A program made the position numbers and the translations under genes. This document shows, in pieces, positions 13,945 to 55,301 of a stretch of 64,000 bases of DNA. The notes beneath the pieces were generated by a model. That model was not told the origin of the DNA. It was given only the letters and a program-made list of their open reading frames with translations, and ran no database searches. Source of the DNA: a virus; the UHGV virus genome UHGV-0038492; one strand, 5' to 3'. The first letter of the stretch is position 1; every line of letters starts with the position of its first letter.

Positions 13945-14026
13945 TCATTTAGATTCGTAGTTCCGTACAGTTCTTGAAATAAATCATCAGGGGAACAACG
14001 CGTTCCCCTTAGAGGAAAAGCTTAAA

Positions 14027-15292
14027 ATGGCGAATTTCTACAAAAACAAAATTGCTCGTGAGTCTATGGAGTCTACTTCTACTGTAGTTCCAGACGGCAT
14101 CGAACTGCCAGCAGAATCTGTAGAAGGTACTCTGGCCGATATCGAGCATGACACCAAACCGATCGAAGCAATGGACGCAGACGCAGAGCTGCTGGCCGAA
14201 GACGGCGACGAAACCGATGCTCAGCTGGAAGTCCTGGACGAAGCTCAGGCTGCTGCTGACGGTGAAGGCGCTGAAGACGGCGAAGAGCCGATGGACGCTG
14301 AAGAAGACATGCCGGACGACGCTGCTAAAGCGCTGGACGTTGCTCAGGAATCCATCCGTTCTCGCTGGAACTTCGAACACCGTTCTTCTGTTGCTCACGA
14401 ATCCTACGGTTCTCGTAACCGCCGTCAGGTTGCTCGTGAATCCCTGTGGGAAGACATTAAAGCCTTCATGAAACGTATCCTTGATTGGCTGAAAGAACAG
14501 GGTCGTAAGATCAAAGATCGTTGGCTGAAATTCCACAACCAGGGTAAATCTATCCAGGCGCGTGCGAAGAAAAACGACGCAATTATCCGTAAGCTGGGCA
14601 AACAGAAGAAAGATGAAATCTCTGGTGGTTTCATTAAATCTCTGTCCATCGACGGTAAGTTCGTTGGTGACGACTCCACGAAACTGAAAGGTATTCTGAC
14701 CCAGGTTTCCAGCTTCTATAGCTCTAAAATGCCTTCTATGGCTGCTAAAGCCTCTGCCATGGTTGAAGATGTTACTAAAGGTAACGGCGCTAAGATTGAA
14801 AACCTGAAAGCCGAGTTCGGTGAACTGGCTAAACAAGATAATCTTAAGAACTTCAAGCTCGGTAACATGGCTGTTAAGTCTGAGTACGATAACGAAGGCG
14901 GTTTCTCCACTACCTTCGTTGAGTCTGAAAACACCGTTGAAACCAGCGTGAAAACTCCGTCTGTTGGCGATCTGGCTAAACTCAATGCCTTCTTCAACGA
15001 AGTGGGTAAACAGATTGAGAAGAACGTTCAGGATTATCGTAAAGTTGAAAGCGCACGTAAGTCTTTCGAAGACAGCATCGATAAGCTGCTGAAAGAAATC
15101 GACAAAGTTAAGATCGATGAAAAACCGGAACTGACCGAAAACGTGCGTCGCGCTCGTCGTTACGTTACCAGTGTTAACCAGGCTCTGTCTCTGGGTGAGA
15201 AAGTTATTGCTTCTACTCAGAAACATCTGGCTAACGGTCTGAACGGTTATATCTCAGCAGGTATTGCCGCTTACGAAAAGACTAAAGCTTAA
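14027..15292 (+). CDS. abundant protein, paralog B of tandem pair
   Basis: Same features as paralog A; 41 nt identical to 13195-13235 at 14588-14628; acidic N-terminal region; terminator follows. Confidence 0.55.
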   Translation: MANFYKNKIARESMESTSTVVPDGIELPAESVEGTLADIEHDTKPIEAMDADAELLAEDGDETDAQLEVLDEAQAAADGEGAEDGEEPMDAEEDMPDDAAKALDVAQESIRSRWNFEHRSSVAHESYGSRNRRQVARESLWEDIKAFMKRILDWLKEQGRKIKDRWLKFHNQGKSIQARAKKNDAIIRKLGKQKKDEISGGFIKSLSIDGKFVGDDSTKLKGILTQVSSFYSSKMPSMAAKASAMVEDVTKGNGAKIENLKAEFGELAKQDNLKNFKLGNMAVKSEYDNEGGFSTTFVESENTVETSVKTPSVGDLAKLNAFFNEVGKQIEKNVQDYRKVESARKSFEDSIDKLLKEIDKVKIDEKPELTENVRRARRYVTSVNQALSLGEKVIASTQKHLANGLNGYISAGIAAYEKTKA

Positions 15293-23428: not shown

Positions 23429-24244
23429 ATGAAAACTATCAAAGACTATTTTCCGACTGGCATCAGTAGCGACCATTTCGTACCAGCGGATTCGATGGAA
23501 ATTATCAGCAAGTCCAGTAGCGGTGAGTTTGTTATTTACCTAACTAATGTAGGAGGTAGACCGAGTTTCATTCTCCTCGAGCCTAAAGAAATAAGTGTCT
23601 GTACGGTTGCTGTAAATGTTTCTTGCGGCCTTAGCTGGTTGAAGTCCAGGCTGTTACGCTTGCTCGTGGTTAATACTGACCCAGCAGTACGCTTAGAGCG
23701 ATTAAAAGCAATGAATGAAGTTATCCTGGGTTTTCTGCTACATCCTATTTACGGTAACCCTAAAGTCGCAGAAGCAATACAAAACGTACAGTTAGTAGAG
23801 TGGAGTGATATTAACTACGAGCGTGCCTCCGAATTTGTATTACAGGCAGACGACAACACCGGTGTGTTCTCACAAACGTTGGATAACGTAACGGTAACCG
23901 CGCGTGTGTTGTTTGGTTTACAACGCGTAGAGTTTGAATTGAAACACGTCTACGTGAGCAATGAGCCAGAGATGGTGGAAACGTTGATTCGTGCGTTCGC
24001 ATATCCGTTAGACGGTGAATGGGAACAGCAGATTAACGGAGCGTTGGAAGCCATGCATTTCCTGGCTCAAACGTTAAGGAAGGATGAGAAATTGAAAGGT
24101 CGTGTTTATCCAGAACACGATTTTGTTTGTGAAGAATGTGGGGCACAGTATCAAATCCGTGTTCCTTTAACCGGCCTAACATTCCCGCAAGCCAACGTGC
24201 AATGTAAGGAATGTGGCCATGTTCAATACGTAGCGATTAAATAA
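23429..24244 (+). CDS. hypothetical protein (271 aa) with C-terminal CxxC...CxxC zinc-ribbon-like motif
   Basis: ORF with RBS ggag; C-terminus CEECGAQYQ...CKECGHVQY. Confidence 0.6.
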   Translation: MKTIKDYFPTGISSDHFVPADSMEIISKSSSGEFVIYLTNVGGRPSFILLEPKEISVCTVAVNVSCGLSWLKSRLLRLLVVNTDPAVRLERLKAMNEVILGFLLHPIYGNPKVAEAIQNVQLVEWSDINYERASEFVLQADDNTGVFSQTLDNVTVTARVLFGLQRVEFELKHVYVSNEPEMVETLIRAFAYPLDGEWEQQINGALEAMHFLAQTLRKDEKLKGRVYPEHDFVCEECGAQYQIRVPLTGLTFPQANVQCKECGHVQYVAIK

Positions 24245-24941: not shown

Positions 24942-26504
24942 TCAAAAGAGTTCGTCACCCATACCGCCTGTAAAGACGTTAATCGACGATGCAGTCACTG
25001 TTTCTTCTTTATCGCAATCCCAAGGCAGAATGCCAACTTCACGGAAAGGTATTACTGTATAATGGTAAGCTTCTTTAGTATCGATAATTGTACGGTGTTT
25101 ACCACGTTGTACTTCTAAGTAACTATGTCCATTGACAACACGTTTGTTAAAATACATCTCACCGTCAGCTTCGTTATCCAAGCTGGAGCAGTTATCGTAA
25201 AGACCGCGACCTGGTAAGTTCTTACAGAAACTTGCTGGGTCTAACGCTTTTAATTTTTTGCCTTCTGGTGAGATTTGGTGTGGTGCTAACAAGAAACCAC
25301 GGTTACGTACTACCTGGATGTTTCGAGCGATACGATAAATTTCTTTAATGTCGCTACCGGCAATCCCGTTACCGTGACCTGCTTTACTGATAGTCCCGAA
25401 ATAGTCTCCGCGAATCCCAGCTACATGATAACCTCGACGCTTTAAGTCCAGTATTAAGTCGTTTAAGTAGTGTATTTTAAAATCTGAGTTTGTGTGTTTC
25501 TGAAAGATGTATTCCCAACCGTTAGCCCGCATTTTACTACAGAGGTAGTCCGACATTTTTGTGTTGTGTAAAGCTTTCTCTTCGTCGGTAGCGTTTTCAG
25601 AAGCAACCATAACCGGTGCTTCACCTTCAAAATGACCGTAGAGCGCTTGGTACGCATACGCCAAGTTAACGTCCAGTTCGTTCTCTAAACTTAAATCGAG
25701 AATAACCGGCTGCAAATCCCCTTTAACATTTTCCATTACTTTTTCGGGTGTATTGAATACCGGAATACTGATAGACAACAACAGACTAAAAAGTGATTTA
25801 CAGTTAAAAGGCAGTGCAGGCATTAACCAAAGCTCTTCGGTAATCCCTTTGTTACAACCCAGCATCTGGTTAATGGCTTTCCATCCGGTACGTAAACCGT
25901 TACCCGCTGCTTTCTTACTGATGGAGTCGAACACATGCACGAACGGTGCACGGTTATCCGTAATAAGCTCGCCTACGAGTGAGGGAATCTTATTATGAGA
26001 GCGTTCACTGAACGTAGAGAGACTATCTCTGAGGTCGTTGAGCGCCGTTTGTAAATCAACGCGCGTTTCGGTTCCGTTCAGTGCGCCTAACGTACGACCT
26101 AATTTTTGTTTCAGTTGTACGCCTTGAATAGCTTGACGTAATTGGAAGTAGTATTGTGCTACTTGACGGTTAAGATGCTCGATGCGTGCTTCTGGTTCTT
26201 CTGGAATATCATCTTCCAGGAATTTGGTAATCGTATCGTATAGAGGACGTATTTGCGTAGTGGCCAACTTCAAACGTTTCATGACGTTTGTGTGGTCGTA
26301 AGGCATACCGCCGTCTATGATGGATGTGATGATATCCTTGATTTCGACGAGGGCGGCACGTTCGTCACCTTCCTCTACGTAATCAGGAAGCTTAGCCTCT
26401 AACAGCACTTTTCTTATGACCTCATGATCCTTCTCAGGGTCGGTCAACAGACTTTCAGTGTATAGTGTGGCTAATGCGGTTATCAACATCATTTTGTTAT
26501 TCAT
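24942..26504 (-). CDS. hypothetical protein (520 aa)
   Basis: Long minus-strand ORF; hairpin ggggagc/gctcccc just downstream of its stop; hydrophobic N-terminus. Confidence 0.6.
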   Translation of the reverse strand: MNNKMMLITALATLYTESLLTDPEKDHEVIRKVLLEAKLPDYVEEGDERAALVEIKDIITSIIDGGMPYDHTNVMKRLKLATTQIRPLYDTITKFLEDDIPEEPEARIEHLNRQVAQYYFQLRQAIQGVQLKQKLGRTLGALNGTETRVDLQTALNDLRDSLSTFSERSHNKIPSLVGELITDNRAPFVHVFDSISKKAAGNGLRTGWKAINQMLGCNKGITEELWLMPALPFNCKSLFSLLLSISIPVFNTPEKVMENVKGDLQPVILDLSLENELDVNLAYAYQALYGHFEGEAPVMVASENATDEEKALHNTKMSDYLCSKMRANGWEYIFQKHTNSDFKIHYLNDLILDLKRRGYHVAGIRGDYFGTISKAGHGNGIAGSDIKEIYRIARNIQVVRNRGFLLAPHQISPEGKKLKALDPASFCKNLPGRGLYDNCSSLDNEADGEMYFNKRVVNGHSYLEVQRGKHRTIIDTKEAYHYTVIPFREVGILPWDCDKEETVTASSINVFTGGMGDELF

Positions 26505-27054: not shown

Positions 27055-29340
27055 ATGAAAGATACCCGAATCTCTAATTTAGAGAAACTCGTAGAAGCCG
27101 GTACTAGTCTGGCCCAAAACGTCATCGGCAACAACACCGCCAGCGAAATGTGGAATACGATTGTTGCAGGCGAGTCCGTACGCAGCAACGCAAAAGTGTT
27201 TGGCGTTCTGCGTGACGAAGCATCACAGCACTATGCCAACGCTTTTGGTGGCAAGAAAATGTCTCATGCTGCGACTGTCGCCTCCGCAATGATTCTGGGT
27301 GCAGCTAACCACGGTAAAGACCTGCAAGAACGTGTTGCCCAGGAATACGCTAAGCCGGAATTCCACACCAAGTATAACCTGGATATTGGTATCCCTGGTG
27401 CGCAAGGTGGTGACTGGGGTCGTGAGCGCATGGTTGTTGCTCAGGAATATTACAGCAACAAAGACTACGACAAAAACCTGGGCCTGACCTGGACCCTGAA
27501 CGTACGTGCTCTGGAAACTCAGTCCAAGTTTGCTGAAACGCTGTTCCCGACCATTACCGTTGACACCAACGATGTTGGTATTACCGTACGTACTAAAGTG
27601 ACTACCGTTTCTCGCGGTATCATGAACGCGCTGCTGAGCAAAGACGTGGTTGAAGACCATCGTCGTCCGCTGCACAACGCACTGACTGACCACACCGTTC
27701 TCCAGGACGAAGCGATCAACATCGTTCCTTACGTAATGGAAACCGGTGAAAACCAGGAATACTTCGTAAGCGAAGAACTGGTTCCGAACGAAAAAGTTCG
27801 CCTGGGTCGTGTACCTCCGTACCCGACTAACTACCTGAGCTTTGCAAACGACACGCTGAACCTGTTCCAGCTGTCTGCGCATCCGGGTATCGTTCAGGAA
27901 GGTTACGATGAAACTGATGAAATCGCACCGGGTTGTGCTCTGGGCAGCCTGCTGATTTCTGTACGTAAACCTGCCGAAGAAGCGAAAGCAGGTAAATTCA
28001 TCAAACTACACGTTCGTGACATGCAGTTCGCAACCTTCCAGCGTCCTGCTGAAGGTGACGGCCGTGAACTGGTTCTGCAATTCCGTCGTACCGCGTTCTC
28101 TCTGAATGCGAAAACCACTGACTGGAAAGGCGACGCTATTCCGGCTCTGCAAGCACTGGGTCAGAACTCCTACACCCTGCGCTACGTTATCACCATCACC
28201 ATGTCCCTGTTCACCAGCGGCCAGTTCGGTGGTAAAGTAGACATTTCCGGCCACAAACTGGAAATCGAAGGTCTGTACGATGCAACTGGTAACAAAGTTG
28301 ATACCAAGTCTGGTACCGGTAAAGTTATCCTGGACGGCCTGAAACTCGAACTGATGGGCTGGCGCTTCGATGGTACTCGTACCAACGAAAACCGTCGTAC
28401 CCAGGGTCTGCTGCTTGACCCAATTTGGGAACAGGAAAACTACAAACTGCAATACGGTTCTCCGATTCTGACCAAGTCTCCGGTTGGTGTTGAATACGAC
28501 GACACTGAACGTCTGGACGACCTGATCTCTGCGGTGAACATCCGTAACGAACAGCTGGCTATTACTCAGACGCTGTCTTACACTGAAGCAGTACGTAACG
28601 CAGCCGCTGCGATGATCACTCCGTGGGACAAACCGGCTATCCGTGGTCTGGGCCGTCACTGGGTTGCTCCGTGGTTCAAAGAGTCTGACTACAAAGTCGA
28701 TGAAGTTGTTCAGTCTCTGGATACCAAAGAAGCGCTGATCAACGCTCGTCAGGGTCTGTTGCAGCGTATCGGTAGCCAGGTAACTCAGGCTATCCAGGAT
28801 TCTCGTTTCATTCCTGCACTGCGCCTGCTGACCGCTGATCCGGACATTCTGCCGAAAGTTATCATCGCAACTGACGAACCGACTGCATCTATGCTGCTGC
28901 TGGTTCAGGGCGACCAACGTCTGCTGGGCGACCGTTATGAATACGAAGTCGTTACCACCAACGATGACCGCTGGCGTATCTACAACGCAGCTGACGATTC
29001 CTGGACTCGTCGTCTGCAATGGTTCCTGAAAGTTCCGACTGCGGACGATGGTTCCTACTGCGTACTGAACTGGGGTAACCACTTCTGGTCTCCGATCATG
29101 GTTACCAACATCAACATCCAGCGTAACGGTTCTACTTCTAAAGAACTGGCTGTACAGCCGCGTAACGCGCATATCTGCCACTGCCCGATCACTGGTCTGA
29201 TTTGGGTTAAAGGCATCACCAAACTGGTTGAAGAAAAACTGGCTTACAACGTTTCTGTAGAACAGAACGGCCAGAAACAAACCGACGGTGGTGTAGCAGG
29301 TAATGTTGCTGGCGACGGTAAAGACAAAGCTGGTAAATAA
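27055..29340 (+). CDS. major capsid protein (phiKZ-like jumbo phage type), putative
   Basis: 761 aa (~83 kDa) ORF with RBS aagg, the strongest codon bias in the window, strong terminator after it; size and composition fit my recollection of phiKZ/SPN3US-type capsid proteins; no search run. Confidence 0.6.
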   Translation: MKDTRISNLEKLVEAGTSLAQNVIGNNTASEMWNTIVAGESVRSNAKVFGVLRDEASQHYANAFGGKKMSHAATVASAMILGAANHGKDLQERVAQEYAKPEFHTKYNLDIGIPGAQGGDWGRERMVVAQEYYSNKDYDKNLGLTWTLNVRALETQSKFAETLFPTITVDTNDVGITVRTKVTTVSRGIMNALLSKDVVEDHRRPLHNALTDHTVLQDEAINIVPYVMETGENQEYFVSEELVPNEKVRLGRVPPYPTNYLSFANDTLNLFQLSAHPGIVQEGYDETDEIAPGCALGSLLISVRKPAEEAKAGKFIKLHVRDMQFATFQRPAEGDGRELVLQFRRTAFSLNAKTTDWKGDAIPALQALGQNSYTLRYVITITMSLFTSGQFGGKVDISGHKLEIEGLYDATGNKVDTKSGTGKVILDGLKLELMGWRFDGTRTNENRRTQGLLLDPIWEQENYKLQYGSPILTKSPVGVEYDDTERLDDLISAVNIRNEQLAITQTLSYTEAVRNAAAAMITPWDKPAIRGLGRHWVAPWFKESDYKVDEVVQSLDTKEALINARQGLLQRIGSQVTQAIQDSRFIPALRLLTADPDILPKVIIATDEPTASMLLLVQGDQRLLGDRYEYEVVTTNDDRWRIYNAADDSWTRRLQWFLKVPTADDGSYCVLNWGNHFWSPIMVTNINIQRNGSTSKELAVQPRNAHICHCPITGLIWVKGITKLVEEKLAYNVSVEQNGQKQTDGGVAGNVAGDGKDKAGK

Positions 29341-29352
29341 TACCGAATAAAA

Positions 29353-29393
29353 AGTGTCTAAGCCCTTCGGGGCTTAGACCTTTTATTTTTTTC
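29353..29393 (+). terminator. Rho-independent terminator
   Basis: Stem gtctaagccc / gggcttagac with loop ttcg, then cttttatttttttc. Confidence 0.8.
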
Positions 29394-29406
29394 TTTCTAT
29401 TATTTT

Positions 29407-29438
29407 TTGGATAGATATTATCAAAGGGAGACTGTCAG
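29407..29438 (+). promoter_or_regulatory. conserved promoter-like element copy 3 (divergent variant)
   Basis: ttggATAGATATTATCAAAGGGAGActgtcag; shares the AT-rich box and GAGA half-site but the palindrome is degenerate. Confidence 0.35.
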
Positions 29439-29457
29439 TTGGTTTAAAGGAGACTTT

Positions 29458-29508
29458 ATGGAAAAATTACAGTTAAAACTAAAGATATGTACCATTATTA
29501 AAACTTAA
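29458..29508 (+). CDS. possible leader micro-ORF (16 aa)
   Basis: ATG with strong SD aaaggaga 6 nt upstream; ends 12 nt before the 29521 gene, which itself lacks an SD. Confidence 0.25.
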   Translation: MEKLQLKLKICTIIKT

Positions 29509-29520
29509 TCTGGCCCCTAC

Positions 29521-30531
29521 ATGAACCGTCTTGATATTGATGTGGTGCCCAGTATTACTGACCGCTCGTTGTATCAAAAGTCAGGACTGCAAAAACTCAT
29601 CACTTTTGAGAATAATACTGGTGTGCCAATTTACGTCACTGAAACCAGTGGCGGTAGCTTTATTTTAACTCCGTCCAAAAGCCCGGCTGATGAGCATGGG
29701 GTTGTTGTTTATGTAACGTATCAATCGTTCGGAAATCTGGTTAACCTGAACGGGTTTGCAGAAGTCTTACCAGAAAAACAATTCACTAAATTCTGTGCAG
29801 ATTTAAAGGAGAAAGGAGAGGTCACACTCCGATACGTGGTTGACGATATCGGTGCTTTATTACGTGGGGACTTGGTTGTATTGAAGCAGCTAGGATTCGC
29901 ATTTTCAATCACACCAGTTCGATTAGAAAGTACGCCACCGAGCGTAAGACCAGGAGGCGAGAGAACTGAATTTACATTAGGTGTTATTGTTGTGCAGCGT
30001 TACGACGATCCCGAACTATATCGATGGATTAGATTCTACGGAACGCGCATGGAAGTACAACCGATTCTATCTCGATATTACGAACCGGGTGTGTACATGG
30101 TAATCGGAGGAGGAGACAAAGTAGAAGGGAGTAGGATGATTCACTTCGAGTTCGATGACTTACTGTCACCGTTCCGTGTTTTTAAAGATAAAGAAACAGC
30201 CACTGCGTTTCGATGGCAAGAAACGTTACCGGATATTCACGAGATAAAGGAAAAGCTGGAAAGTCAATACAGAGAAAAATTAGAAAGTTTGGATTCGGCA
30301 AAAGACAAACTGGAAATAGAACACAAAAAACAACTACAGAATTTGGCTTTGGAAAAGGAGCGTTTGACTCTAGCGTATAAACAACAAGAACTAGAAGCAA
30401 AGTCTCGGGCAGAGGCACGAAAAGAATTCTACGAGACTCGTTCTTACATTCGTAAAGATGGGTCAGACCTATTTAAATCAGTCCCTGCGTATCTGGCGGC
30501 GGGTGTCGCATTTATAGGGATGCTAAAGTAA
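29521..30531 (+). CDS. hypothetical protein (336 aa) with coiled-coil-like region and C-terminal hydrophobic segment
   Basis: ORF; heptad-like charged repeats (KEKLESQYREKLESLDSAKDKLE...) and C-terminal AYLAAGVAFIGML. Confidence 0.55.
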   Translation: MNRLDIDVVPSITDRSLYQKSGLQKLITFENNTGVPIYVTETSGGSFILTPSKSPADEHGVVVYVTYQSFGNLVNLNGFAEVLPEKQFTKFCADLKEKGEVTLRYVVDDIGALLRGDLVVLKQLGFAFSITPVRLESTPPSVRPGGERTEFTLGVIVVQRYDDPELYRWIRFYGTRMEVQPILSRYYEPGVYMVIGGGDKVEGSRMIHFEFDDLLSPFRVFKDKETATAFRWQETLPDIHEIKEKLESQYREKLESLDSAKDKLEIEHKKQLQNLALEKERLTLAYKQQELEAKSRAEARKEFYETRSYIRKDGSDLFKSVPAYLAAGVAFIGMLK

Positions 30532-30541
30532 GGAGCGTGGC

Positions 30542-32317
30542 GTGTTTAAAGATGCAATCAGAAAGCTTAAAGAGGATGGCAAAATAGTACCCTTTAACCG
30601 AGCGATTGCGGAAGGTGTCGGTTATACACAGGCCAAAGACGGTATACACGAGCGTGTTCAGATTATCTTGAAACGTGAGCTGGATTATCATCCTGTTGAT
30701 AATCCGCGTGTTCCTGAAGGGCTGGCTGTATTAGGCGTACGGTTAATGTCACCGTTTGAAACGTTCATCTATAAGCTGTCTCGTTCTGAGAGCAGCAGAA
30801 TGGATAGACGTCGTGGTGTGATGTCCATTGCGAATACTGATGCGTATATGGTCATGTCAACATTCCGTATTCCAGGAGATTCTCGACCGATCTCAAGACC
30901 GATTAACTTACCCTTTATCCGTCGTGGTGGTTTAATGAACTACTACGGTACGACGTATCACGTTGCACCGGTTATTCACCAGCCAGGTATCTGTCGCGAA
31001 CACGGTGGGGTATTTGTTAACTTTGACTTTAAACGTAAAGCCTCGTTGAAATTCTGTAAGCAACCTGTCCGTGTGTTAGTCAACGGCAAGAAAGAGGAGC
31101 TATTCTTACCAGGCACCAAAAACCTGTTCAAAGCGAAGAACGCAACACATCCTGATACTGACGAGAAACCGTTAATGTATTGGTTGTTCGGACGTTACGG
31201 ATTTAAAGAAGCGATTAAACGCTATACTGGTGTTGACGTAGAAATTTATCCGTCGTTTAAGATCCCAGAACTCGATCTCAACGAGAAAGTTGTAATCAGT
31301 TCCGGTGAATCGAAATATAACCGTTCGATAATGTACGCGGTTGTCGTGCCCGCGGAAGCATTGCCGAACGTGGATAAAGTCGGTTGGGATCAAAACGAGC
31401 ATTTGTTGCTGGCCGCAATTGCCGCGTTCTTCAAAGCCGCTCATTACTATTGCAGTAAACAATCCATTAAGAACGGTAACGTCACGCCGCTCCCGCCGCT
31501 GTTTACCGCAATTAACGAGTTAGCGATGGAAGACGATATTGCTAACCTGAACTCTGCTCCGATTTGGCGTGAGATTCTGGGAAGAAGTATCGTAGGACTA
31601 AAACCTTCCGATATTGAGTTAGCACACAGTATGGCGAAACACTATACTGAATGCGATCGCTATGTTAACTCAACGTTCCGTGCAGAACTGAAGATGACCG
31701 ATCCCGACATTCCAGACGACATGGATATGTTCGATTTCTTCTGGTATGCAACGAAGCTGATGGTACGTACCCGTTTAACCAAACAGGGTGACATTCCGTC
31801 AATGTACGGAAAACGTTTAACCGTAACTGACTACTTACTGTTAGGTGACCGTGGCTTTACACCAACGGTAGCGGCTATTCGTTTCCACCTGGGACAAACG
31901 GAGAATCGTTCGCCAGAATCCTGCGCGAATATGATTCGTAGCGCACTCAATAAAGAAATTGTCACGAGTCTGGTGTTGCGTAATATCACTGGTAACGGTG
32001 GTGTAAGTTATTTCAATGCATCAACAGAGTCCATGGTACTAGGAGTATCCACACACGCAATCAGTCAAACTGAAACGGAATCTAAACGTAACAGCAAAGG
32101 CGGTAAAACGGTTAACCTTAACGACCGTACGAAGCACGCTTCTGCATCGCACCTCGAATGCGGTAACGTTTATTACATTCCGAAGTCGTCCCCATTCAAA
32201 TGGGGTGTCCTTAACCCGTATATGAAAACTAACCGTCAATTAGTGATGGTTCGTAATCCAAAACTTGACGAGTTAATCCAAGCAACCGAAGAAGACATTG
32301 CGAAGATTGGCCGTTAA
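30542..32317 (+). CDS. hypothetical protein (591 aa), GTG start
   Basis: GTG 30542 with RBS aggag 7 nt upstream; long ORF. Confidence 0.6.
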   Translation: MFKDAIRKLKEDGKIVPFNRAIAEGVGYTQAKDGIHERVQIILKRELDYHPVDNPRVPEGLAVLGVRLMSPFETFIYKLSRSESSRMDRRRGVMSIANTDAYMVMSTFRIPGDSRPISRPINLPFIRRGGLMNYYGTTYHVAPVIHQPGICREHGGVFVNFDFKRKASLKFCKQPVRVLVNGKKEELFLPGTKNLFKAKNATHPDTDEKPLMYWLFGRYGFKEAIKRYTGVDVEIYPSFKIPELDLNEKVVISSGESKYNRSIMYAVVVPAEALPNVDKVGWDQNEHLLLAAIAAFFKAAHYYCSKQSIKNGNVTPLPPLFTAINELAMEDDIANLNSAPIWREILGRSIVGLKPSDIELAHSMAKHYTECDRYVNSTFRAELKMTDPDIPDDMDMFDFFWYATKLMVRTRLTKQGDIPSMYGKRLTVTDYLLLGDRGFTPTVAAIRFHLGQTENRSPESCANMIRSALNKEIVTSLVLRNITGNGGVSYFNASTESMVLGVSTHAISQTETESKRNSKGGKTVNLNDRTKHASASHLECGNVYYIPKSSPFKWGVLNPYMKTNRQLVMVRNPKLDELIQATEEDIAKIGR

Positions 32318-32356
32318 CCACGAAAGACGTATTAAGACCTATTAGGAGAATTAAGA

Positions 32357-33967
32357 ATGGCAAGCTACAGCGAAACTCGTGAATTTATCTTGAAAGTTTT
32401 TATGGCTAAACAGGATCAGCTGTTGAACTATCTCGTCGACGCGATGAATGCGAAAGGGATAAAAGAAGATCCGTTTGTTAATGCAGCGTGTATTGTGGGT
32501 AACTGGTATCTGCAAAACCGTCGTCCTAGCGACCAGACTAACGTTGCGGTTATCGAAACCTTTAAGGCAACGCTCTATAGCCGTCTGTTAGGTTTAGGTC
32601 TGACCCCGTTGCAGCCGGACATTCATAGCGCGTTAGAGAAAGCGTTTGTGCTGGCGAATCAGCTTGCAGAAGAAGCTCGTCGTGCCGGGCAGGGTGGCTT
32701 CGGTGTACGTACTGAACCGGTTAACTTCGGTATTCAGAATTCGCAAAATGCGCAACCAACTGCACCGATTCAGGGTTCTTCTGTACCAATGGCCAGCTAT
32801 ACTCCGGCCGGTGTAACAGTGCAACCTGTACAACCCGCTCCGGTATTCGGTGGTACTCAGCAACCTCAACCTCAACCGCAAACACAGCCTGCTATTATTC
32901 AGCCGACTGTTCCGCAGGAAGTGATGAACAAAAGCAAGCCTGTGGATATGAATAAGGAAACGATGGATGATATCATTCAACGTGCTAACCGTCCTCACCA
33001 TGACATTTTGCGGGTAGAAATTGTGGAAGACTATTTAGATCACGAGCTGAAAGAAAAGATTCAGCAAAACGTTGTTTCGCCGAAAGAAGCCAACACACGC
33101 GTCAAGAATTCTGTGTATGCAGAACATCGTGACTGGGGTGATAAGGTTAGTGAACTGGTTGAAGATAACGACAAACAATATTGCTCGTATGACGATGCGG
33201 GTATCATGGTGAAAGTCGAAAGCGAATATCGTCTGTATCCGATGGCACAGACTGAAACTTCTGCGGTGTATCTCCAGGAGTTTTATAGTTCGGTTCGCCA
33301 GATTATCGACGATCTCGATACCGTACGTGATATTGACGATATTGAAAAGCTGATGGAGCGTGTTTCTAATGACGTCTTCAGACTGCGTGATCTTGCACAA
33401 CGTTTGTTAATGTACTTCCTCACCAAATCTGATGAGAATGAAACGTATCGTAGCGAATGTTCAGCGTTTACTCGTCGTTTCATTGCAACATTAACTGTGC
33501 TGGTTCACAACGCCATCTCCGTGGCATCTGCTTATGGTAAAGACGTTCCGGGTACGAAATTCGTACAGTTGGAATGCTGCCTGGATGACATGACCTACTT
33601 TAAAGAGACGGTGTACGGTCGTACCATCGGTGAAAACGGCGTGAGCAAGTCTGCGGATTATTTCCGTGAAATGTTCCTGCTGATCGCGCGTTCTCTGCGT
33701 AAGCTGCACATTCGACTGACCTGCGATAATAAAGCCATTGAACTGTCTCAGGTAACGTACACGATTTCTCTGCAAGCAGATTATCAATCCGCTAACGATC
33801 GCCACATCGTGGAAATCTCATCATTTGGTAATAGCTTCGAACCGATTGTTTCAATCTACGAAGTCATTAACCAGAAAGCACCAGAAGCGTTCATTAAACT
33901 TAAGACCCCGTCTCACGTTTATTCGCTACTGAGCACAGGTGACGTTACTGCACCGGTTCGTTATTAA
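32357..33967 (+). CDS. hypothetical protein (536 aa) with internal P/Q-rich linker
   Basis: RBS aggagaa before ATG; low-complexity QPQPQPQTQP segment. Confidence 0.6.
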   Translation: MASYSETREFILKVFMAKQDQLLNYLVDAMNAKGIKEDPFVNAACIVGNWYLQNRRPSDQTNVAVIETFKATLYSRLLGLGLTPLQPDIHSALEKAFVLANQLAEEARRAGQGGFGVRTEPVNFGIQNSQNAQPTAPIQGSSVPMASYTPAGVTVQPVQPAPVFGGTQQPQPQPQTQPAIIQPTVPQEVMNKSKPVDMNKETMDDIIQRANRPHHDILRVEIVEDYLDHELKEKIQQNVVSPKEANTRVKNSVYAEHRDWGDKVSELVEDNDKQYCSYDDAGIMVKVESEYRLYPMAQTETSAVYLQEFYSSVRQIIDDLDTVRDIDDIEKLMERVSNDVFRLRDLAQRLLMYFLTKSDENETYRSECSAFTRRFIATLTVLVHNAISVASAYGKDVPGTKFVQLECCLDDMTYFKETVYGRTIGENGVSKSADYFREMFLLIARSLRKLHIRLTCDNKAIELSQVTYTISLQADYQSANDRHIVEISSFGNSFEPIVSIYEVINQKAPEAFIKLKTPSHVYSLLSTGDVTAPVRY

Positions 33968-34005
33968 GTTTGGATTGGGGGTGGAAACATCCCCATTTTT
34001 AAGGA

Positions 34006-34260
34006 GTGCGTATGGCCGCTTATGTTGATTACAGTAAAGCCAAGATAGAGCTAAACGTAATTGATACCGTAGAGCGTTTAAAGCAACAACTTTCTTTGGA
34101 GTTATATCAACTTCGCGTCCGTATTCACGAGCGTGAACAACTTATTGAGAAACGTCCATTATTTATCGACGAGAAGCAGGTAAAACTTATCACTGCGGAG
34201 TTAGAAGTTATGGCCGCAGAGAAACTGTTACTCGAAGAACGTATCGCTGCTATTGGTTAA
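34006..34260 (+). CDS. hypothetical protein (84 aa), coiled-coil-like
   Basis: RBS aaggag before ATG 34012-region start; terminator follows. Confidence 0.5.
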   Translation: MRMAAYVDYSKAKIELNVIDTVERLKQQLSLELYQLRVRIHEREQLIEKRPLFIDEKQVKLITAELEVMAAEKLLLEERIAAIG

Positions 34261-34269
34261 TCACCACAC

Positions 34270-34305
34270 AAGGAGAGCCTAGGCTCTCCTCCTTTCTTTT
34301 TTATT
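34270..34305 (+). terminator. Rho-independent terminator
   Basis: Palindrome aggagagcctaggctctcct then cctttcttttttatt. Confidence 0.7.
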
Positions 34306-34344
34306 CCCAAATTTATTATAGTACCCACTCATTAGGGAATTAAG

Positions 34345-34644
34345 ATGATTAAGTATATTGCAATCAATGTAAACTACGAACGTAACCCACGTTTTCGTTT
34401 TGAGTTACCTGAAACCAAAGCAACCATGGAGTTTAATCGTTACCTGTTAGAACATTCAAACACCAAAATCAATCACGGTAGATACTGGCTTATCTACTAT
34501 AATGCCCGTAATGAGTTACTGAAAGCCGTCAAGAAATCAGGTCAGTCAGAACTGTTAGCGAAACTGATGGCGTTTGATGGCGATCCTTTAGCAATAGGAA
34601 TTATGTTAGACCTTGCTATCAATAAAGACGAAATAGCATGGTGA
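34345..34644 (+). CDS. hypothetical protein (99 aa)
   Basis: RBS agggaattaag before ATG 34345. Confidence 0.5.
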   Translation: MIKYIAINVNYERNPRFRFELPETKATMEFNRYLLEHSNTKINHGRYWLIYYNARNELLKAVKKSGQSELLAKLMAFDGDPLAIGIMLDLAINKDEIAW

Positions 34645-34705
34645 AAAAAAGAAAGCTACTCCGACCCCAGAAGGGTCGGAGTAAGCTCGAATTATTTTTT
34701 TTTTG
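34644..34705. terminator. bidirectional Rho-independent terminator
   Basis: Stem tactccgaccc / gggtcggagta flanked by an A-run (upstream) and T-run (downstream); between convergent genes. Confidence 0.8.
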
Positions 34706-34709
34706 CTAT

Positions 34710-37379
34710 TTAGAGAGTTTCATCGGTGTTGTCGTCTGTACCGGTATCCGTCTCGTCCGTGCCCTCAGTTGAAACTTCTTCTTCCGTTGTCGTATCGGTT
34801 TCCGTCGTTTCATCATCGGTCATGTCCAAGTCTTCATCACCGCCCAGATCGTCGCCACCAAAGTCGTTGCCCCCGCCGAAGTTATTGGCGTCTTCAGGAT
34901 TCAAATCAGCCGCTTTTGCTATCGTCTGAACTTTACCGGTCGCACGTTTTGCTAACTGAATCAGCGTCTTCGATGCTGCTGCAATTTCATCAGAAATCAT
35001 CTTGACGTTTTCACCACGTTTATCTTCATCGTAGATCAAATCAAACAGATCGGTTTCGATGCCCTGATTACGTAGCCAGTTGCGCGCGTAGAAGGTCTTA
35101 ACCATCGTCTTGAGGTCATCAGGTGACATTTCAATACCTTCGTTCTGAAGCATATTAGCAATGTCGTCCGTGACCACCAGATCTGCAAGTTTCTCGATAA
35201 ATTCATAGCGTTTATCGAAGAGATCAGCTTGAGATGCTGTTGCAGAAGTATCAGGCGGCGGCAAGGTGACCTTCATACCGTTTATAAACTTCGCCATATA
35301 CTCTGACGTTTGTTTTGTCATCTCTTCGCTAGTTACATTCGGATTCTGCTCACGGATATACTCAACGATAATACGGATGAGTTCTGCTTGCAGTTTCGGT
35401 GAAGCTTGCAGACTGTTTGTAACGTAGCGCGTAAGCGGGGTTGAGAGGATTTCCTGTTTCTTCACAATCTGTTGAGTAACCAACAGCGATTTAGAATAAA
35501 TCTGAGAAGCAAACTCCAGGTTCTCCGGGGTAAGTACAAGGTCAGGATCAACACACGCGATGTGACATGTACGGCGTAACAGGTTCTCGTCAATTTGTTG
35601 ATCAGGAACTTTATACTCCGGCGTGGTATCAGACACAGATACTTTGTGGCTGGCGTAGTAATCGTTACCCGTTACGTTAAAGGCAATCCCCGCGTTAGCC
35701 CCCATTGACCAGGCGTCGTTGATATCACCCCACATCGGCAGGCGACGATTGTAGGAATTAAGGATATCTGATTTAACTTGGTCAACAGTTTTTTGACCGT
35801 TTGCATCATCTGGTGACAGCTCAATGTCGTACTGCATGTGACGTGCCGAGTTCAGTACAGATGAGTTCATCGTTGCGAACAGCAGCGCCATCCTGACAGT
35901 AGAGATAATAAAGGAGCGCTCAGTAATAGAAACCCCGATACCGTCTTCGTTAAAGTCCGTTGCAAAATAGCACAAGTTATTAACCGGAATGTAAACCACC
36001 TGAGTATGACGTTTTGCGAGATGCCGCGCTAACAGAATACGACCGAATGTTTCGGTAATATTCATGCTGATTTCTGCGCCACCTAGTGCCTGACTTAATG
36101 CGCGTGCAAATTCGTTTTCAGCGATTTCACCACAACGTGTACTTAAACGGTTGGCGATTTCCGGGGTAATACGAGAAGTGTTCCCTAAGCCCAGATTAGA
36201 ACGGTTAATGATGCTGTCCGTCATCCCGTCGTTATTCAGGTAGTTCATAAAGTTCGCATCGCCGTACAGCGAGGAGCGAGCATTGATGAAGTTACCCATG
36301 TCATCTACGATGGTCAGATAACCGATAGGGTTACGAACGTCATCGCCAATTACCAGTGGCAGCGTTGACTCTGCGGGCAGTAAACGTTCGATGTATTCGA
36401 TTTTGTTATTCTCATCCATTGAGATAATAGGAATATCACCGTACGTTTGTGTTTTCGGTGTTGACTTATACGCCTCGTTTAAATCACCCAAGTTAATGAA
36501 CCCTTTTTCAGCAGCGTCACGCTGACGGTCATCGAAAGATTGATTAGGGTCGAACGGACTGCCACCGTTTGGTGTAGACGGCTTTTCATATGCGGCTTGC
36601 TCTAATTGCCCGTACAATCCCGTACGTGCGTTCTCATGCGCAATACGACGATACAAATCCGGCAGCATGGTAATGCGCGGGTTATCGGTAATCGTGATTT
36701 CCATCTGGAATTTATCCGAGAACATCGAATCGTGCTTACCGAAATCGATTTTCAATGTTTGTGGACCAGTAACGGCTCCGCGTAAACGGTTGAGAATTGA
36801 TTCTACACCAACTCGCTGCCCTTCTTTCGGCGCATTAATAGGCCCGAGGATACCAAGCTGTTGTTCGAAGAACGCCGTTTGAGAACGACGAATAGATTCA
36901 GTAGCGACCTTTGTATTCAGACCGAATAATTGGTCGAAGCCGGTATCCGAGATTATCATCACTGGACTTGCGCCTTTGGTTTTTAACGCATCGTAAATCC
37001 ACTGATATAATTTCTTAGGTAGCTGACGAATGTTATCGTGATAATCACGGGTCGGTGTCAGTAGCGCGTTACGCAGATCAATGGGGATGTCCGCGAAGTT
37101 GTCGTAAATCAACGTCGTGTTGATTAAGTCTTTTGTTGATAGCAGGCTCGAAGTTGCAATAGTAACGATTGTTTCGAGTTCAGGTAACGCATCAAAGATA
37201 CGTTCCGCATTTTTGATAGTACGAATACGTGAACTCGCAATTGCCGTGAGTTCTTGACGTGTTGGCGTAGAACCACCCTCGCTACGCGTACCGCGTTGTT
37301 GCTGAGGTGCTGGGCCCGTAGTTTTACGAAGAATTGCAGCTACGGCGGGGTCGCCCGTTAATTTACTAATATCGTCCAT
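34710..37379 (-). CDS. large virion protein, candidate portal protein (889 aa) with acidic C-terminal tail
   Basis: Long minus-strand ORF ~100 kDa with D/E/T-rich C-terminus; lies six genes from the capsid gene, as I recall for phiKZ-like phages; functional call is inference only. Confidence 0.4.
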   Translation of the reverse strand: MDDISKLTGDPAVAAILRKTTGPAPQQQRGTRSEGGSTPTRQELTAIASSRIRTIKNAERIFDALPELETIVTIATSSLLSTKDLINTTLIYDNFADIPIDLRNALLTPTRDYHDNIRQLPKKLYQWIYDALKTKGASPVMIISDTGFDQLFGLNTKVATESIRRSQTAFFEQQLGILGPINAPKEGQRVGVESILNRLRGAVTGPQTLKIDFGKHDSMFSDKFQMEITITDNPRITMLPDLYRRIAHENARTGLYGQLEQAAYEKPSTPNGGSPFDPNQSFDDRQRDAAEKGFINLGDLNEAYKSTPKTQTYGDIPIISMDENNKIEYIERLLPAESTLPLVIGDDVRNPIGYLTIVDDMGNFINARSSLYGDANFMNYLNNDGMTDSIINRSNLGLGNTSRITPEIANRLSTRCGEIAENEFARALSQALGGAEISMNITETFGRILLARHLAKRHTQVVYIPVNNLCYFATDFNEDGIGVSITERSFIISTVRMALLFATMNSSVLNSARHMQYDIELSPDDANGQKTVDQVKSDILNSYNRRLPMWGDINDAWSMGANAGIAFNVTGNDYYASHKVSVSDTTPEYKVPDQQIDENLLRRTCHIACVDPDLVLTPENLEFASQIYSKSLLVTQQIVKKQEILSTPLTRYVTNSLQASPKLQAELIRIIVEYIREQNPNVTSEEMTKQTSEYMAKFINGMKVTLPPPDTSATASQADLFDKRYEFIEKLADLVVTDDIANMLQNEGIEMSPDDLKTMVKTFYARNWLRNQGIETDLFDLIYDEDKRGENVKMISDEIAAASKTLIQLAKRATGKVQTIAKAADLNPEDANNFGGGNDFGGDDLGGDEDLDMTDDETTETDTTTEEEVSTEGTDETDTGTDDNTDETL

Positions 37380-39574
37380 TGGGGTCTCCGATGCAGAGAT
37401 TTAACATATTTCGTGAACAGAACATCGCGTTGGCGAAATCACTGATTATTAAATCAGAATCAATCGCACAACAGATGAATCTGGCAATAACCGAGAACGG
37501 CGGTTTCGTTTCCGATAACCGAAGTACGTGGCGATACTACCTGCATTTAGCAGGACAACGTCACGAATGGGATAAGCCCATTTACATAACGTCGCTCGAC
37601 ACGCAAGAGCAGATAGAATTAACGACAGCCAACCTGTCCCGTCATAAAAAGACCTCAAACGTATTTCGTTCGAACGGCGAGTACATTGAGGAGCTGATCA
37701 GAACGTATCCTGACTACGCGATTTATATCCGGGGTGTGTTTAATCCGGTGGATATAAACTACGCCATCCGTGTGGCTGACTGCTCTATCCTCTATTACGA
37801 CAGTTCATTAGTGGAGTCGCAAGAGACGTCGCTGATGTCGAGATTGGAAGACAGAATAAGGGCAGCTCACGTTCGCTATATGTCAGAAGGGTGGAAAGTT
37901 CACAACGATGCGTTCGTGTTAGCATTCTACTGTATTCTGTATCCGCAGCTACCCGGCATTATCGGCTATATCCGTTCTTCTTTACAGCATACCACGGAAA
38001 CACATTCTTTTTACGTGACCGAGTTCTTAGCATCACACCAAGAACTTCACGAGTTTATGCCTTATCTGACCCAGAAACAGAAATTCATTCTGTATCGGAA
38101 TATTCGTTACTGGGAGCGTAATTCAGGGAAAGAGGAGATTTTCGACTGGCAGATTGATGCGCTACTGACAGGTTGGGGGATGCCTGCGGTCGGGTATAAT
38201 GTTGCGCAGCAGATACACGAACCGAAGGATGATGACGATTCCACGTTAACACCGTTACCGATTGGTTATCAGCAATCGCTTAACTATACGGAAAAGGATT
38301 CTGGTCGAGACCTTGACATTGTAACGACGACGGACATTATCCAGAAGGAAGTCGCGTTAGCGTACAATAACCCGGCGTACGAACCGGAGTATCAAGAAGA
38401 CTTAGATACCCGTTTAAGTTTAACGCAATACCCTAACCTAAAAACCAAACTCATTGAAGTTACAGCAGTCGATCCAGAAGCGATTGAGCGCTTCGAGTAT
38501 CTGCATAACCTCTTTAACGAATGGGTACATCTCGTCGCGAAAGGGAAATACAACATTTACCACGAGATTCTTAACCCAACAAACGGGGATACCTTAAAGC
38601 TTAGCTCAAAAGAGTTATTGGCGCTGTTCTTGTACGCGGCGTATAAAGGGTATTCTGACGTTGCGTTAGAAGAGATTCCTGTGTTCAACGTATTCGGGGT
38701 GTTAATCAAACGCTGGGTTCCATTCGATGAAATGGAACAACATTTAATCCCGAGCTGGGAAAACCGTTTCGATGCGTTGATTAACTATTATACCGATACG
38801 CACACAGAAGTCGTCGGAACGATTCTTAGTGCTGATGAACTTTACGACACGGTTAATGAAATCATTACCCAGAAACGCCGTCGTTGGCGTTATAGCCAAA
38901 ACCGTCGGAAGATTCCTGACCGCGCTGCGGGCTTGATGCTGTTTAACTACCATTATCGTGATTATCGTTGCGATTTAAAACTGAACTACCGTAACTACGA
39001 TGAGTTCTTTAAAACGTTTGGGTTAGACTATACGTTGGTTTCGGCGGAGACGTGGCAAGACATTGCTATTGATGCGTTTAACACCGCAACTAACCTGGAA
39101 ACCCGCGCAACGATTTCACAGTCTGAGATTCAGCGTGCGATGGTACGACTGATGACGAAGCTGTCATCCTACACCGTACATTTTGCTGCACGAATGGGGT
39201 CAGATTCTTACGACGTTATGGACCCGCTCTGTCCTATCTTAGGGGATATCCCTATGAGTGGGGAGGGGACAATTACAATTATTGAACCCCTCTTAGGCGT
39301 ACAGCAAGTTACGCGTCACCAGTATATGTCCACCGACACTGTGTTACCGGCAGCGCCTGTTATTAAAGAACTGTCGATGCCACAGCACATCAAACTCAGG
39401 ATGAACATTTACATGGGTATCCGAGTGAAAGTAACACAGCAGGTTGTGGTGGATATTAACGAGCCGACTACCGGGGTTGTTAAAGTGAAATCTTCGCTTG
39501 ACGATTGGACGTTAAACGAACAGGTGAAAATTAACGATCTGGACGGCTTCACGCTTGACCAGCTACCTAAGTGA
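37379..39574 (+). CDS. hypothetical protein (731 aa)
   Basis: Long ORF diverging from the portal-candidate gene; start codons of the two genes abut. Confidence 0.65.
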   Translation: MGSPMQRFNIFREQNIALAKSLIIKSESIAQQMNLAITENGGFVSDNRSTWRYYLHLAGQRHEWDKPIYITSLDTQEQIELTTANLSRHKKTSNVFRSNGEYIEELIRTYPDYAIYIRGVFNPVDINYAIRVADCSILYYDSSLVESQETSLMSRLEDRIRAAHVRYMSEGWKVHNDAFVLAFYCILYPQLPGIIGYIRSSLQHTTETHSFYVTEFLASHQELHEFMPYLTQKQKFILYRNIRYWERNSGKEEIFDWQIDALLTGWGMPAVGYNVAQQIHEPKDDDDSTLTPLPIGYQQSLNYTEKDSGRDLDIVTTTDIIQKEVALAYNNPAYEPEYQEDLDTRLSLTQYPNLKTKLIEVTAVDPEAIERFEYLHNLFNEWVHLVAKGKYNIYHEILNPTNGDTLKLSSKELLALFLYAAYKGYSDVALEEIPVFNVFGVLIKRWVPFDEMEQHLIPSWENRFDALINYYTDTHTEVVGTILSADELYDTVNEIITQKRRRWRYSQNRRKIPDRAAGLMLFNYHYRDYRCDLKLNYRNYDEFFKTFGLDYTLVSAETWQDIAIDAFNTATNLETRATISQSEIQRAMVRLMTKLSSYTVHFAARMGSDSYDVMDPLCPILGDIPMSGEGTITIIEPLLGVQQVTRHQYMSTDTVLPAAPVIKELSMPQHIKLRMNIYMGIRVKVTQQVVVDINEPTTGVVKVKSSLDDWTLNEQVKINDLDGFTLDQLPK

Positions 39575-54957: not shown

Positions 54958-54970
54958 CGGTCTAAAAAAT

Positions 54971-55004
54971 TTAAGATATATTTCATCTATGTGAGAATTC
55001 TCAC
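54971..55004 (+). promoter_or_regulatory. conserved promoter-like element copy 5 (variant)
   Basis: ttaAGATATATTTCATCTATGTGAGAATTCTCAC with perfect palindrome GTGAGAATTCTCAC. Confidence 0.4.
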
Positions 55005-55027
55005 TTAACTAAATGGAGTAATCTAAA

Positions 55028-55297: not shown

Positions 55298-55301
55298 GCA
55301 G

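Follow-up and report, generated by a model that had tools for sequence, protein, structure and literature searches.

The window analysed here, a stretch of 64,000 nucleotides of viral DNA (UHGV-0038492), raises the question of whether two large genes at 27055-37379, on opposite strands, are the capsid and portal genes of a jumbo phage related to phiKZ. The initial annotation proposed this identity from the gene order of phiKZ/SPN3US-type phages, and it predicted that the genome would encode split multisubunit RNA polymerases and a nucleus-like compartment and would have no conventional single-chain DNA polymerase. The homology, fold, synteny, cleavage-motif conservation and codon bias described below leave us highly confident that the region comes from the genome of a phiKZ-like (Chimalliviridae-type) jumbo phage and that it contains the capsid and portal genes. 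The arrangement of these two genes is ordinary for the phiKZ/SPN3US phage group.

The first gene (27055-29340, plus strand, ATG start) encodes the precursor of a phiKZ-type major capsid protein (MCP). Its product has 761 residues and 84.6 kDa, and the capsid-like size first claimed for it is matched by a full-length hit to the Pfam family PF25620 PhiKZ_MCP, which covers profile positions 2-634 of 635 and thus the whole family model (E 1.4e-207; 691.2 bits, with the curated cut-off at 27). The protein also matches the major head protein family phrog_3231 (E 1.2e-278) and the jumbo-phage capsid chains 11bt, 36za, 8y6v and 8bfl in the PDB (E 1e-49 to 2e-32), where the best matches are 11bt (E 1.2e-49), 36za_A0 (1365 chains; E 3.3e-49) and 8y6v, which is phiKZ gp120 (E 3.2e-33). 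It is 78% identical to its SPN3US counterpart and is the ortholog of SPN3US gp75 and phiKZ gp120. The codon bias of this gene had been called extreme, which is fair in relative terms: its effective number of codons (ENC) is 33.2, where the window median is 49.9, and only one of the 58 ORFs has a lower value. A comparable ENC was found only in two paralogous phiKZ-type internal head (ejection) proteins (31.9 and 33.6). These are encoded at 12673-15292 (plus strand; 423 and 421 aa), in the positions of SPN3US gp53 and gp54, match PF12699 phiKZ_IP (E 1.7e-72 and 6.7e-58), and are 69% and 61% identical to the SPN3US proteins. Codon bias in the window follows expected virion abundance. Directly 3' of the capsid gene is a strong, bidirectional terminator-like hairpin (29356-29379) with a 10-pair stem, 6 GC pairs, and T runs on either strand.

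The capsid protein is probably made with a propeptide. SPN3US gp75 is the MCP of that phage and its cleavage has been mapped after E130 (PMC5694885). The motif AQE131|YY aligns with this site, and residues 1-131 (27055-27447, plus strand) form the predicted N-terminal propeptide, which is 47% identical to that of SPN3US, whereas the mature part is 82% identical. By analogy, we infer that the prohead protease removes the propeptide after AQE131, leaving a mature protein with a predicted mass of 70.5 kDa. If particles are produced as in SPN3US, about 1,560 copies of this ~70 kDa product would form a T=27 shell, by analogy with gp75.

The second gene (34710-37379, minus strand, ATG start) encodes a protein of 889 residues, 98.8 kDa and pI 4.63, in agreement with the ~100 kDa product on the opposite strand that had been noted as a portal candidate. 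It is 72% identical to SPN3US gp81, matches phrog_3004 (E 0), and is the ortholog of SPN3US gp81 and phiKZ gp129. The former has been experimentally assigned as the portal, with its cleavages mapped (PMC5694885), and the latter is a dodecameric portal (PMC13250141). With tblastn, portal homologs were found in 256 phage records; the 40 matches listed all come from genomes of 211-307 kb. Still, databases label this protein family merely ‘virion structural protein’, a Pfam search of the protein found no family, a portal domain included, and several further large virion proteins are encoded in the window. One could thus argue that the 889 aa product is some other large structural protein of the virion, for example an acidic-tailed ejection or inner-body protein, and that the true portal lies elsewhere. 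We consider this extremely improbable. Direct homology links the protein to the chain that was built as the dodecameric portal in the cryo-EM structure of phiKZ (9xpe_M PHIKZ129, 12 chains; phmmer E 1.3e-40) and to 11ed_J ‘Portal Protein gp36’ (phmmer E 1.2e-27); for gp129 itself, that structure already refutes such a reading. In SPN3US, the abundance of the orthologous protein is that of a portal, and its predicted fold is portal-like (PMC5694885). In addition, a Foldseek search with an AlphaFold (AF2) model of the protein ranked the phiKZ portal first (E 3.5e-20, probability 1.0), and ranks 2-50 were all portal or portal-vertex entries, the matches other than phiKZ being individually weak (E > 0.01). 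The model itself is of moderate confidence only (pLDDT 60.6, pTM 0.51). The homology to the solved gp129 structure and the fold search support the conclusion that the 889 aa protein is the portal, with a canonical portal fold, and the candidacy proposed in the initial annotation is borne out.

Like the capsid protein, the portal appears to be a precursor. Two A-x-E motifs, ATE161 and AHE249, align with E161 and AQE254 of SPN3US, which are mapped cleavage sites (PMC5694885); masses calculated from the SPN3US positions agree with those published for its mature proteins. Residues A247 and E249 are invariant across 35 homologs. We propose that the predicted N-terminal propeptide (residues 1-249; 36633-37379, minus strand) is probably cut at both motifs, giving a subunit of ~71 kDa (predicted mature mass 71.1 kDa). 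Twelve such subunits would form the ring of the unique vertex, serving as the passage for DNA during packaging and release. At the other end of the protein, the acidic tail that had been claimed is present: the last 70 residues (34710-34922 with the stop codon, minus strand) contain 26 D/E against 1 K/R, together with 14 T and 9 G, and this G/T-rich tail is predicted to be disordered (pLDDT < 30 in the AF2 model). The protein is 24 aa shorter than in SPN3US, mainly in the acidic tail, and an alignment shows the tail to be 16 aa shorter than in 98%-identical relatives, a difference seen in both plasmid-labelled records discussed below. Just downstream of the gene is a terminator-like hairpin (34656-34684, minus strand) with a 13-pair stem, 7 GC pairs, and a following T run.

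Exactly five plus-strand ORFs separate the capsid and portal genes, as had been claimed, and NCBI PGAP calls the same five genes in the 98%-identical records. The first (29521-30531; 336 aa) is a conserved protein in the position of SPN3US gp76, to which it is 52% identical (phrog_7286, E 3.6e-120); a PDB sequence search gave chance-level matches only. [quoted passage not shown] It matches phiKZ gp123 (phmmer E 2.8e-22; PDB 7ogp_E PHIKZ123, E 1.9e-17) and is 71% identical to SPN3US gp77. These are known respectively as the nvRNAP β-like subunit in structure 7OGP (PMC8287921) and the nvRNAP β N-fragment (PMC5105663). The third (32357-33967; 536 aa) is a fast-evolving homolog of SPN3US gp78, with an identity of just 31% (phrog_8185, E 9e-108) and only chance-level matches in a PDB sequence search. 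In SPN3US, gp78 is essential, is not part of the virion, and is suspected of acting as a regulator (PMC5105663). The fourth (34006-34260; 84 aa) is a small ORF with no family match found, although PGAP calls an equivalent CDS in the relatives, and it is followed by a terminator-like hairpin (34271-34290). The fifth (34345-34644; 99 aa), also small and conserved, lies in the position of SPN3US gp80, is 52% identical to its counterpart there, and has an ENC of 37.9. For the four genes other than this last one, a Pfam search found no family.

The intervening genes thus do not all belong to the head, one encoding an nvRNAP β-like subunit and another a counterpart of the essential non-virion gp78. 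Upstream, the region is flanked by a gene for a divergent DnaB-like replicative helicase (24942-26504, minus strand; PF20307 divDNAB, E 4.9e-126), which is 84% identical to that of SPN3US. On the other side, the portal gene stands head-to-head with a homolog of phiKZ gp128 (37391-39574, plus strand), the two start codons being 11 nt apart (37377-37393). The latter ORF matches phiKZ gp128 (phmmer E 2.6e-85; PDB 9xqs_C PHIKZ128, E 2.9e-81), which is a baseplate wedge protein (PMC13250141). The ‘head module’ of the initial annotation holds as far as the capsid and portal genes are concerned, but the term is overstated: two or more of the five genes between them are transcription-related rather than virion genes, and the flanking genes encode a helicase and a baseplate wedge protein.

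The closest characterised relatives are Salmonella phage SPN3US and Erwinia phage vB_EamM_Asesino (Erskinevirus). SPN3US (Seoulvirus) has the same series of a minus-strand helicase, a small ORF, the MCP, five genes, a minus-strand portal and a wedge gene 11 nt away. Order, strands and spacing from gp75 to gp81 are identical, with the nvRNAP β fragment and gp78 inside, and the protease motifs are at equivalent positions. Over the whole window, 55 of the 63 ORFs match SPN3US in strict collinearity (SPN3US 41,236-109,834), with protein identities of 24-84%, and the other eight have no counterpart there. The identity is 72% for the portal, 78% for the MCP and 31% for the gp78-like protein. Asesino has the same overall layout and gives the best nucleotide match for the MCP gene (83.1%) and, among those listed, the best tblastn match for the portal (75.2%); it differs in its host, Erwinia, and in an additional gene of 269 aa right after the MCP, which makes six intervening genes. 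In Pseudomonas phage phiKZ the homologous MCP (gp120), nvRNAP subunit (gp123), wedge (gp128) and portal (gp129) lie in one neighbourhood, and the head-to-head portal/gp128 pair is conserved. However, identities to phiKZ are only 21-29%, eight genes separate the MCP from the portal there, and both of these lie on the same strand, since the portal/gp128 block has opposite orientations in the two lineages. The gene order named in the initial annotation is therefore that of SPN3US and not that of phiKZ. The check named in the initial annotation, similarity to the phiKZ-like capsid and portal families, gave matches to both pairs of proteins, phiKZ gp120/gp129 and SPN3US gp75/gp81.

By convention, members of an ICTV genus share ~70% or more nucleotide identity over the genome. 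We rejected membership of the genus Seoulvirus because megablast against SPN3US aligns just the MCP gene, or 18% of the 10.3 kb query, at ~83% identity. Many ORFs over the 64 kb are below 60% identity to SPN3US at the protein level. By this approximate test, the window would belong to a related but separate lineage.

The genome-level predictions can be followed in the window and in a full record that is 97% identical to it. One half of a split family-B DNA polymerase, the ortholog of SPN3US gp44, is encoded at 333-2249 (minus strand; phrog_3011 DNA polymerase, E 3.3e-252). It is 76% identical to SPN3US ACQ60_gp222, in an alignment that begins at query residue 46, and the PGAP CDS in a relative has 593 aa; the true start is probably near 2114, the mechanical ORF being over-extended. 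A PDB sequence search with this half gave chance-level matches only. In the full record, the other half is encoded 27 kb from it, and its SPN3US version matches PF20286 divDNApol. SPN3US is described as having a ‘split subunit DNA polymerase’ (PMC5105663), and the predicted lack of a conventional single-chain enzyme agrees with these two halves. Split multisubunit RNA polymerases, also predicted, are found as well: the full record has homologs of seven SPN3US genes annotated as RNA polymerase β/β', one of them the nvRNAP β fragment in the window. A scan of the window for sigma-70 promoters found 18 sites against 24.2 in shuffles, i.e. fewer, and is uninformative because such phages use their own RNA polymerases. 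Scans of the 64 kb for tRNAs, Rfam families and tandem repeats found none. The full record also contains a protease, a terminase, a sheath protein, and a chimallin candidate that lies outside the window, a homolog of SPN3US ACQ60_gp244 (617 aa) at 54% identity. From its size and locus tag, we infer that ACQ60_gp244 is the chimallin ‘gp244’ of Laughlin et al. (PMC9365700). The chimallin assignment in the SPN3US clade rests on an identity of 10% claimed in the literature, which was not reproduced here by sequence search, and by sequence the SPN3US candidate matched no PDB or Pfam entry, so that these searches gave the predicted nucleus no independent confirmation.

With regard to genome size, for which the jumbo phage criterion is more than 200 kb, the 97-98%-identical records have 221,873 and 222,441 bp and the contigs of the cluster 222-230 kb. 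Both records were deposited as circular ‘plasmids’. The first, p98232-contig_4 of E. coli 98232 (NZ_CP173450.1, 221,873 bp), shares 97.2% identity with the window over 63.3 kb and has the same genes. The second, ‘plasmid unnamed1’ of Enterobacter ludwigii 51A:C (NZ_CP134650.1, 222,441 bp), belongs to the same phage lineage. They differ from the window in the 16 additional residues of the portal tail. The segment at 54.7-56.8 kb of the window is divergent or absent in the 97%-identical full record. In both depositions all genes of the region are annotated ‘hypothetical protein’ except the helicase. As members of the cluster also come from hundreds of bacterial isolate assemblies, the window might be read as part of a genuine large plasmid, or of a phage-plasmid, that merely carries phage-derived structural genes. 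We rejected this identity as very unlikely because among the annotated genes of the complete record none is a plasmid replication initiator, partition, relaxase or integrase gene and PLSDB types it as non-mobilizable, whereas its gene order follows that of a virulent jumbo phage and it has a full set of virion, packaging, RNA polymerase and replication genes. A circular assembly would be expected for a terminally redundant phage genome. A prophage was also rejected, because the records are separate circular replicons without an integrase.

A phage genome in these isolates is in line with a 2025 preprint, which explains contigs of this kind by persistent infection with non-temperate phages (bioRxiv 10.1101/2024.12.31.630880). 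So far, the lineage has been met only among sequenced isolates of Salmonella, E. coli and Enterobacter, as contigs or ‘plasmids’ of ~222 kb. We tentatively suggest, as a possibility that we hold to be rather doubtful at present, that a never-isolated lineage of nucleus-forming jumbo phages persists for many generations in dividing Salmonella, E. coli, Shigella and Enterobacter as an extrachromosomal element of ~222 kb. It is pure speculation that lineage-specific genes and fast-evolving regulators of the window, such as the gp78-like protein and the variable block at 54.7-57.3 kb, might contribute to such persistence.

In sum, the value of these findings lies mainly in annotation. The names of SPN3US genes can be transferred to most of the window (55 of 63 ORFs), and public records that label such DNA a plasmid full of hypothetical proteins can be corrected. 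The idea of persistence was already put forward in the preprint and is not established by our analysis. If true, it would mean a lifestyle that is neither lytic nor lysogenic for a Chimalliviridae-type phage. As the lineage is abundant in enteric surveillance genomes and absent from phage collections, it is a candidate model for persistent infection by virulent jumbo phages.

The 761 aa product of the ORF at 27055-29340 (+) is a phiKZ-type major capsid protein (MCP). It matched PF25620 (PhiKZ_MCP) over the whole model in Pfam (E = 1.4e-207), PHROG 3231 (major head protein) in PHROGs and solved capsid chains among PDB sequences, including phiKZ gp120 (8y6v) and the chain present in 1365 copies in 36za. 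It is 78% identical to gp75, the MCP encoded at 70105-72405 in the Salmonella jumbo phage SPN3US, which loses 130 residues (PMC5694885). Residue 130 of gp75 is the glutamate in ATE|YY; without residues 1-130 the calculated mass agrees with the published 70.4 kDa. The window protein carries AQE131|YY at the aligned position, giving a predicted mature mass of 70.5 kDa; identity to SPN3US is 47% in the predicted propeptide compared with 82% in the mature part. The extreme codon bias reported in the initial annotation is real: the window median for the effective number of codons is 49.9, but this ORF has 33.2, and only one of the 58 ORFs scores lower. Only two phiKZ_IP internal-head-protein paralogs (12673-15292) have comparable values, and these correspond by position to SPN3US gp53 and gp54, two of the most abundant proteins in the virion of that phage (PMC5694885). 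Thus, codon bias tracks expected expression level.

The ORF at 34710-37379 (-) encodes the portal. Its 889 aa product (98.8 kDa, pI 4.63) has 26 D/E and a single K/R in its last 70 residues, in agreement with the roughly 100 kDa, acidic-tailed candidate first described. A Pfam search assigned it no family and PHROGs labelled it only 'virion structural protein', but phmmer against PDB sequences matched it to PHIKZ129 (9xpe, 12 chains, E = 1.3e-40), a 'Portal Protein gp36' chain (E = 1.2e-27) and a 12-copy chain in 36za (E = 2e-23). The 2026 phiKZ structural atlas identifies gp129 as the dodecameric portal (PMC13250141). A structure predicted from a 35-sequence homolog alignment (42-99% identity to the window protein) had a mean pLDDT of 60.6, a pTM of 0.51 and a disordered C-terminal tail. 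In Foldseek searches of the PDB, its top match was the phiKZ portal (E = 3.5e-20, probability 1.0), and the remaining 49 listed matches, each individually weak, were all portal or portal-vertex entries, including T4 gp20, HK97, G20c, crAss001, N4, SU10 and HFTV1. The protein is 72% identical to SPN3US gp81, a portal that is cleaved at residue 161 or beyond and probably after AQE-254 (PMC5694885). Both ATE161 and AHE249 are kept in the window protein, A247 and E249 are invariant in 35 of 35 homologs, and the mature subunit is predicted to be 71.1 kDa. By tblastn, the family was found in 256 phage records; all 40 of the records listed have genomes of 211-307 kb. The G/D/E/T-rich acidic tail (34710-34922, -) has a deletion of 16 residues when set against relatives that are 98% identical (889 versus 905 aa), and nowhere is the protein less conserved: identity to SPN3US is 44% here, compared with 73% for the core. 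This suggests that the tail is a length-variable, disordered segment.

Five plus-strand ORFs (336, 591, 536, 84 and 99 aa) separate the two genes, as had been claimed, and in two public records of 98% identity the NCBI annotation pipeline (PGAP) calls the same five. The 591 aa product is homologous to phiKZ gp123 (7OGP chain E, E = 1.9e-17; phmmer, 2.8e-22), a β-like subunit of the phiKZ non-virion RNA polymerase (PMC8287921). The adjoining 536 aa gene (32357-33967, +) corresponds to SPN3US gp78, which is essential, non-virion and suspected to be regulatory. Its product had no match in Pfam or the PDB and is only 31% identical to SPN3US, whereas its neighbours are about 70% identical; the gene is markedly fast-evolving. 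Family and database searches assigned no function to the 336, 84 and 99 aa genes.

The gene order given in the initial annotation is that of SPN3US, in which the capsid-to-portal arrangement is exactly that of the window, and not that of phiKZ. In the Erwinia phage Asesino, one additional gene follows the MCP. In phiKZ, gp120 (MCP) is followed by gp121-125 (+), gp126-128 (-) and gp129 (portal, +), so that eight genes intervene and the portal is co-oriented with the MCP. As both phiKZ and the window retain a divergent portal/gp128 pair, the difference is an inversion of that block, and inversions are frequent among phiKZ-related phages (PMC5105663). The window gene head-to-head with the portal gene is the gp128 homolog (E = 2.6e-85; PDB 9xqs), a baseplate wedge protein in phiKZ (PMC13250141). 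As in SPN3US, the start codons of the portal (-) and wedge (+) genes are 11 nt apart (37377-37393), so each promoter must lie within the other's coding sequence. The mechanically called wedge start, TTG 37379, is probably incorrect, and ATG 37391 agrees with the starts in the relatives.

The term 'head module' applies only loosely. The capsid and portal genes are present, but genes for replication, transcription and the tail surround them, with a divergent DnaB-like helicase gene upstream of the capsid gene, and in a 97%-identical full-length record the distance to the protease and terminase genes is at least about 70 kb. Strong terminator-like hairpins follow both the capsid and the portal genes. 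Elsewhere, a 434 aa protein (8652-9956, -) matches PF23971, 'Putative phage tail tube protein' (E = 9e-175). Its gene adjoins head or ejection-protein genes, and for the SPN3US counterpart the annotation says no more than virion structural protein; the name of the family may mislead here.

Collinearity extends well beyond this region: 55 of the 63 window ORFs tested match SPN3US in strict order (SPN3US 41,236-109,834) at 24-84% identity. Together with PF25620, PHIKZ129 homology and the Foldseek result, this supports the phiKZ-like identity of capsid and portal, whose ORFs are exactly as initially described. The ORFs at 23429-24244 (+, 271 aa, weak C-terminal zinc-ribbon signal) and 50132-50815 (+, 227 aa, no match in Pfam or PHROGs) have no SPN3US counterpart. 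A variable block covers 54670-57263 and 58437-58967; within it, an E. coli record of 97% identity lacks 54670-54952 and 56400-56795, and identity falls to 90.8% across 54953-56399. Five ORFs in the block lack an SPN3US counterpart and any informative family match beyond one weak HslV-like PHROG match, and are likely accessory genes.

The genome had been predicted to lack a conventional single-chain DNA polymerase and to encode split multisubunit RNA polymerases, and both points are supported. The ORF at 333-2249 is orthologous to one of the SPN3US genes annotated 'DNA polymerase' (phrog_3011, E = 3.3e-252); the other SPN3US polymerase gene (759 aa) is Pfam divDNApol, and phiKZ has a 'split subunit DNA polymerase' (PMC5105663). 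We assembled the full E. coli record NZ_CP173450.1, to which the window aligns at 50,690-114,098 on the reverse strand (97.2% identity over 63,321 bases). This relative has both polymerase halves, 27 kb apart, homologs of seven SPN3US RNA polymerase-annotated genes, and a prohead protease (S80 family by PGAP), terminase and sheath. At 28603-30724, outside the window, it also encodes a tRNA-Ile along with two radical SAM proteins from neighbouring genes.

The relative also encodes a 54%-identical homolog of SPN3US ACQ60_gp244 (617 aa), which, by size and locus tag, is probably the diverged chimallin (nuclear-shell protein) 'gp244' of Laughlin et al. (PMC9365700). Sequence searches did not recover its chimallin relationship, so the nucleus prediction rests on the literature. 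A preprint on persistent phages (bioRxiv 10.1101/2024.12.31.630880) instead gives YP_009153538 as the chimallin of SPN3US. RefSeq lists under that accession a virion protein of 240 aa, the original gp244, which was assigned as the C-terminal piece of virion RNA polymerase β' (PMC5105663), whereas the 'gp244' of Laughlin et al. fits locus tag ACQ60_gp244 (YP_009153316). The preprint's assignment looks like a numbering mix-up. The SPN3US loci of the two proteins are L005:25024-25746 and L006:7269-9122 (outside the window), and the relative has homologs of both YP_009153538 (87%) and YP_009153316 (54%).

Among isolated phages in the collection, the nearest match in the MCP gene is about 83% identical. 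The exact proteins fall in 90% clusters of 181-561 members, and those with a source name come almost entirely from isolate assemblies, numbering in the hundreds, of Salmonella, E. coli, Shigella and Enterobacter, on 222-230 kb contigs. DNA that is 97-98% identical has been deposited as circular 'plasmids' within the complete genomes of E. coli 98232 (urine, Egypt; NZ_CP173450.1, 221,873 bp) and Enterobacter ludwigii 51A:C (gull cloaca, France). The complete NZ_CP173450.1 record has no annotated integrase, partition (Par), plasmid replication (Rep) or relaxase gene. Such cases have already been described: the 2025 preprint (bioRxiv 10.1101/2024.12.31.630880) counts 299 'Seoul-like' jumbo phages, of which 84% come from bacterial assemblies, mostly Salmonella, and interprets them as non-temperate phages in persistent infection.

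In sum, the original observation is confirmed and its interpretation supported, with two corrections: the head module is not pure, and the gene order is specific to SPN3US and not to phiKZ. Neither the capsid and portal proteins nor their arrangement is new, but the genome itself is; it belongs to an unisolated relative which, judged by nucleotide similarity, appears related to Seoulvirus but outside that genus. The main value of the finding is in annotation transfer and in the correction of the 'plasmid' records.
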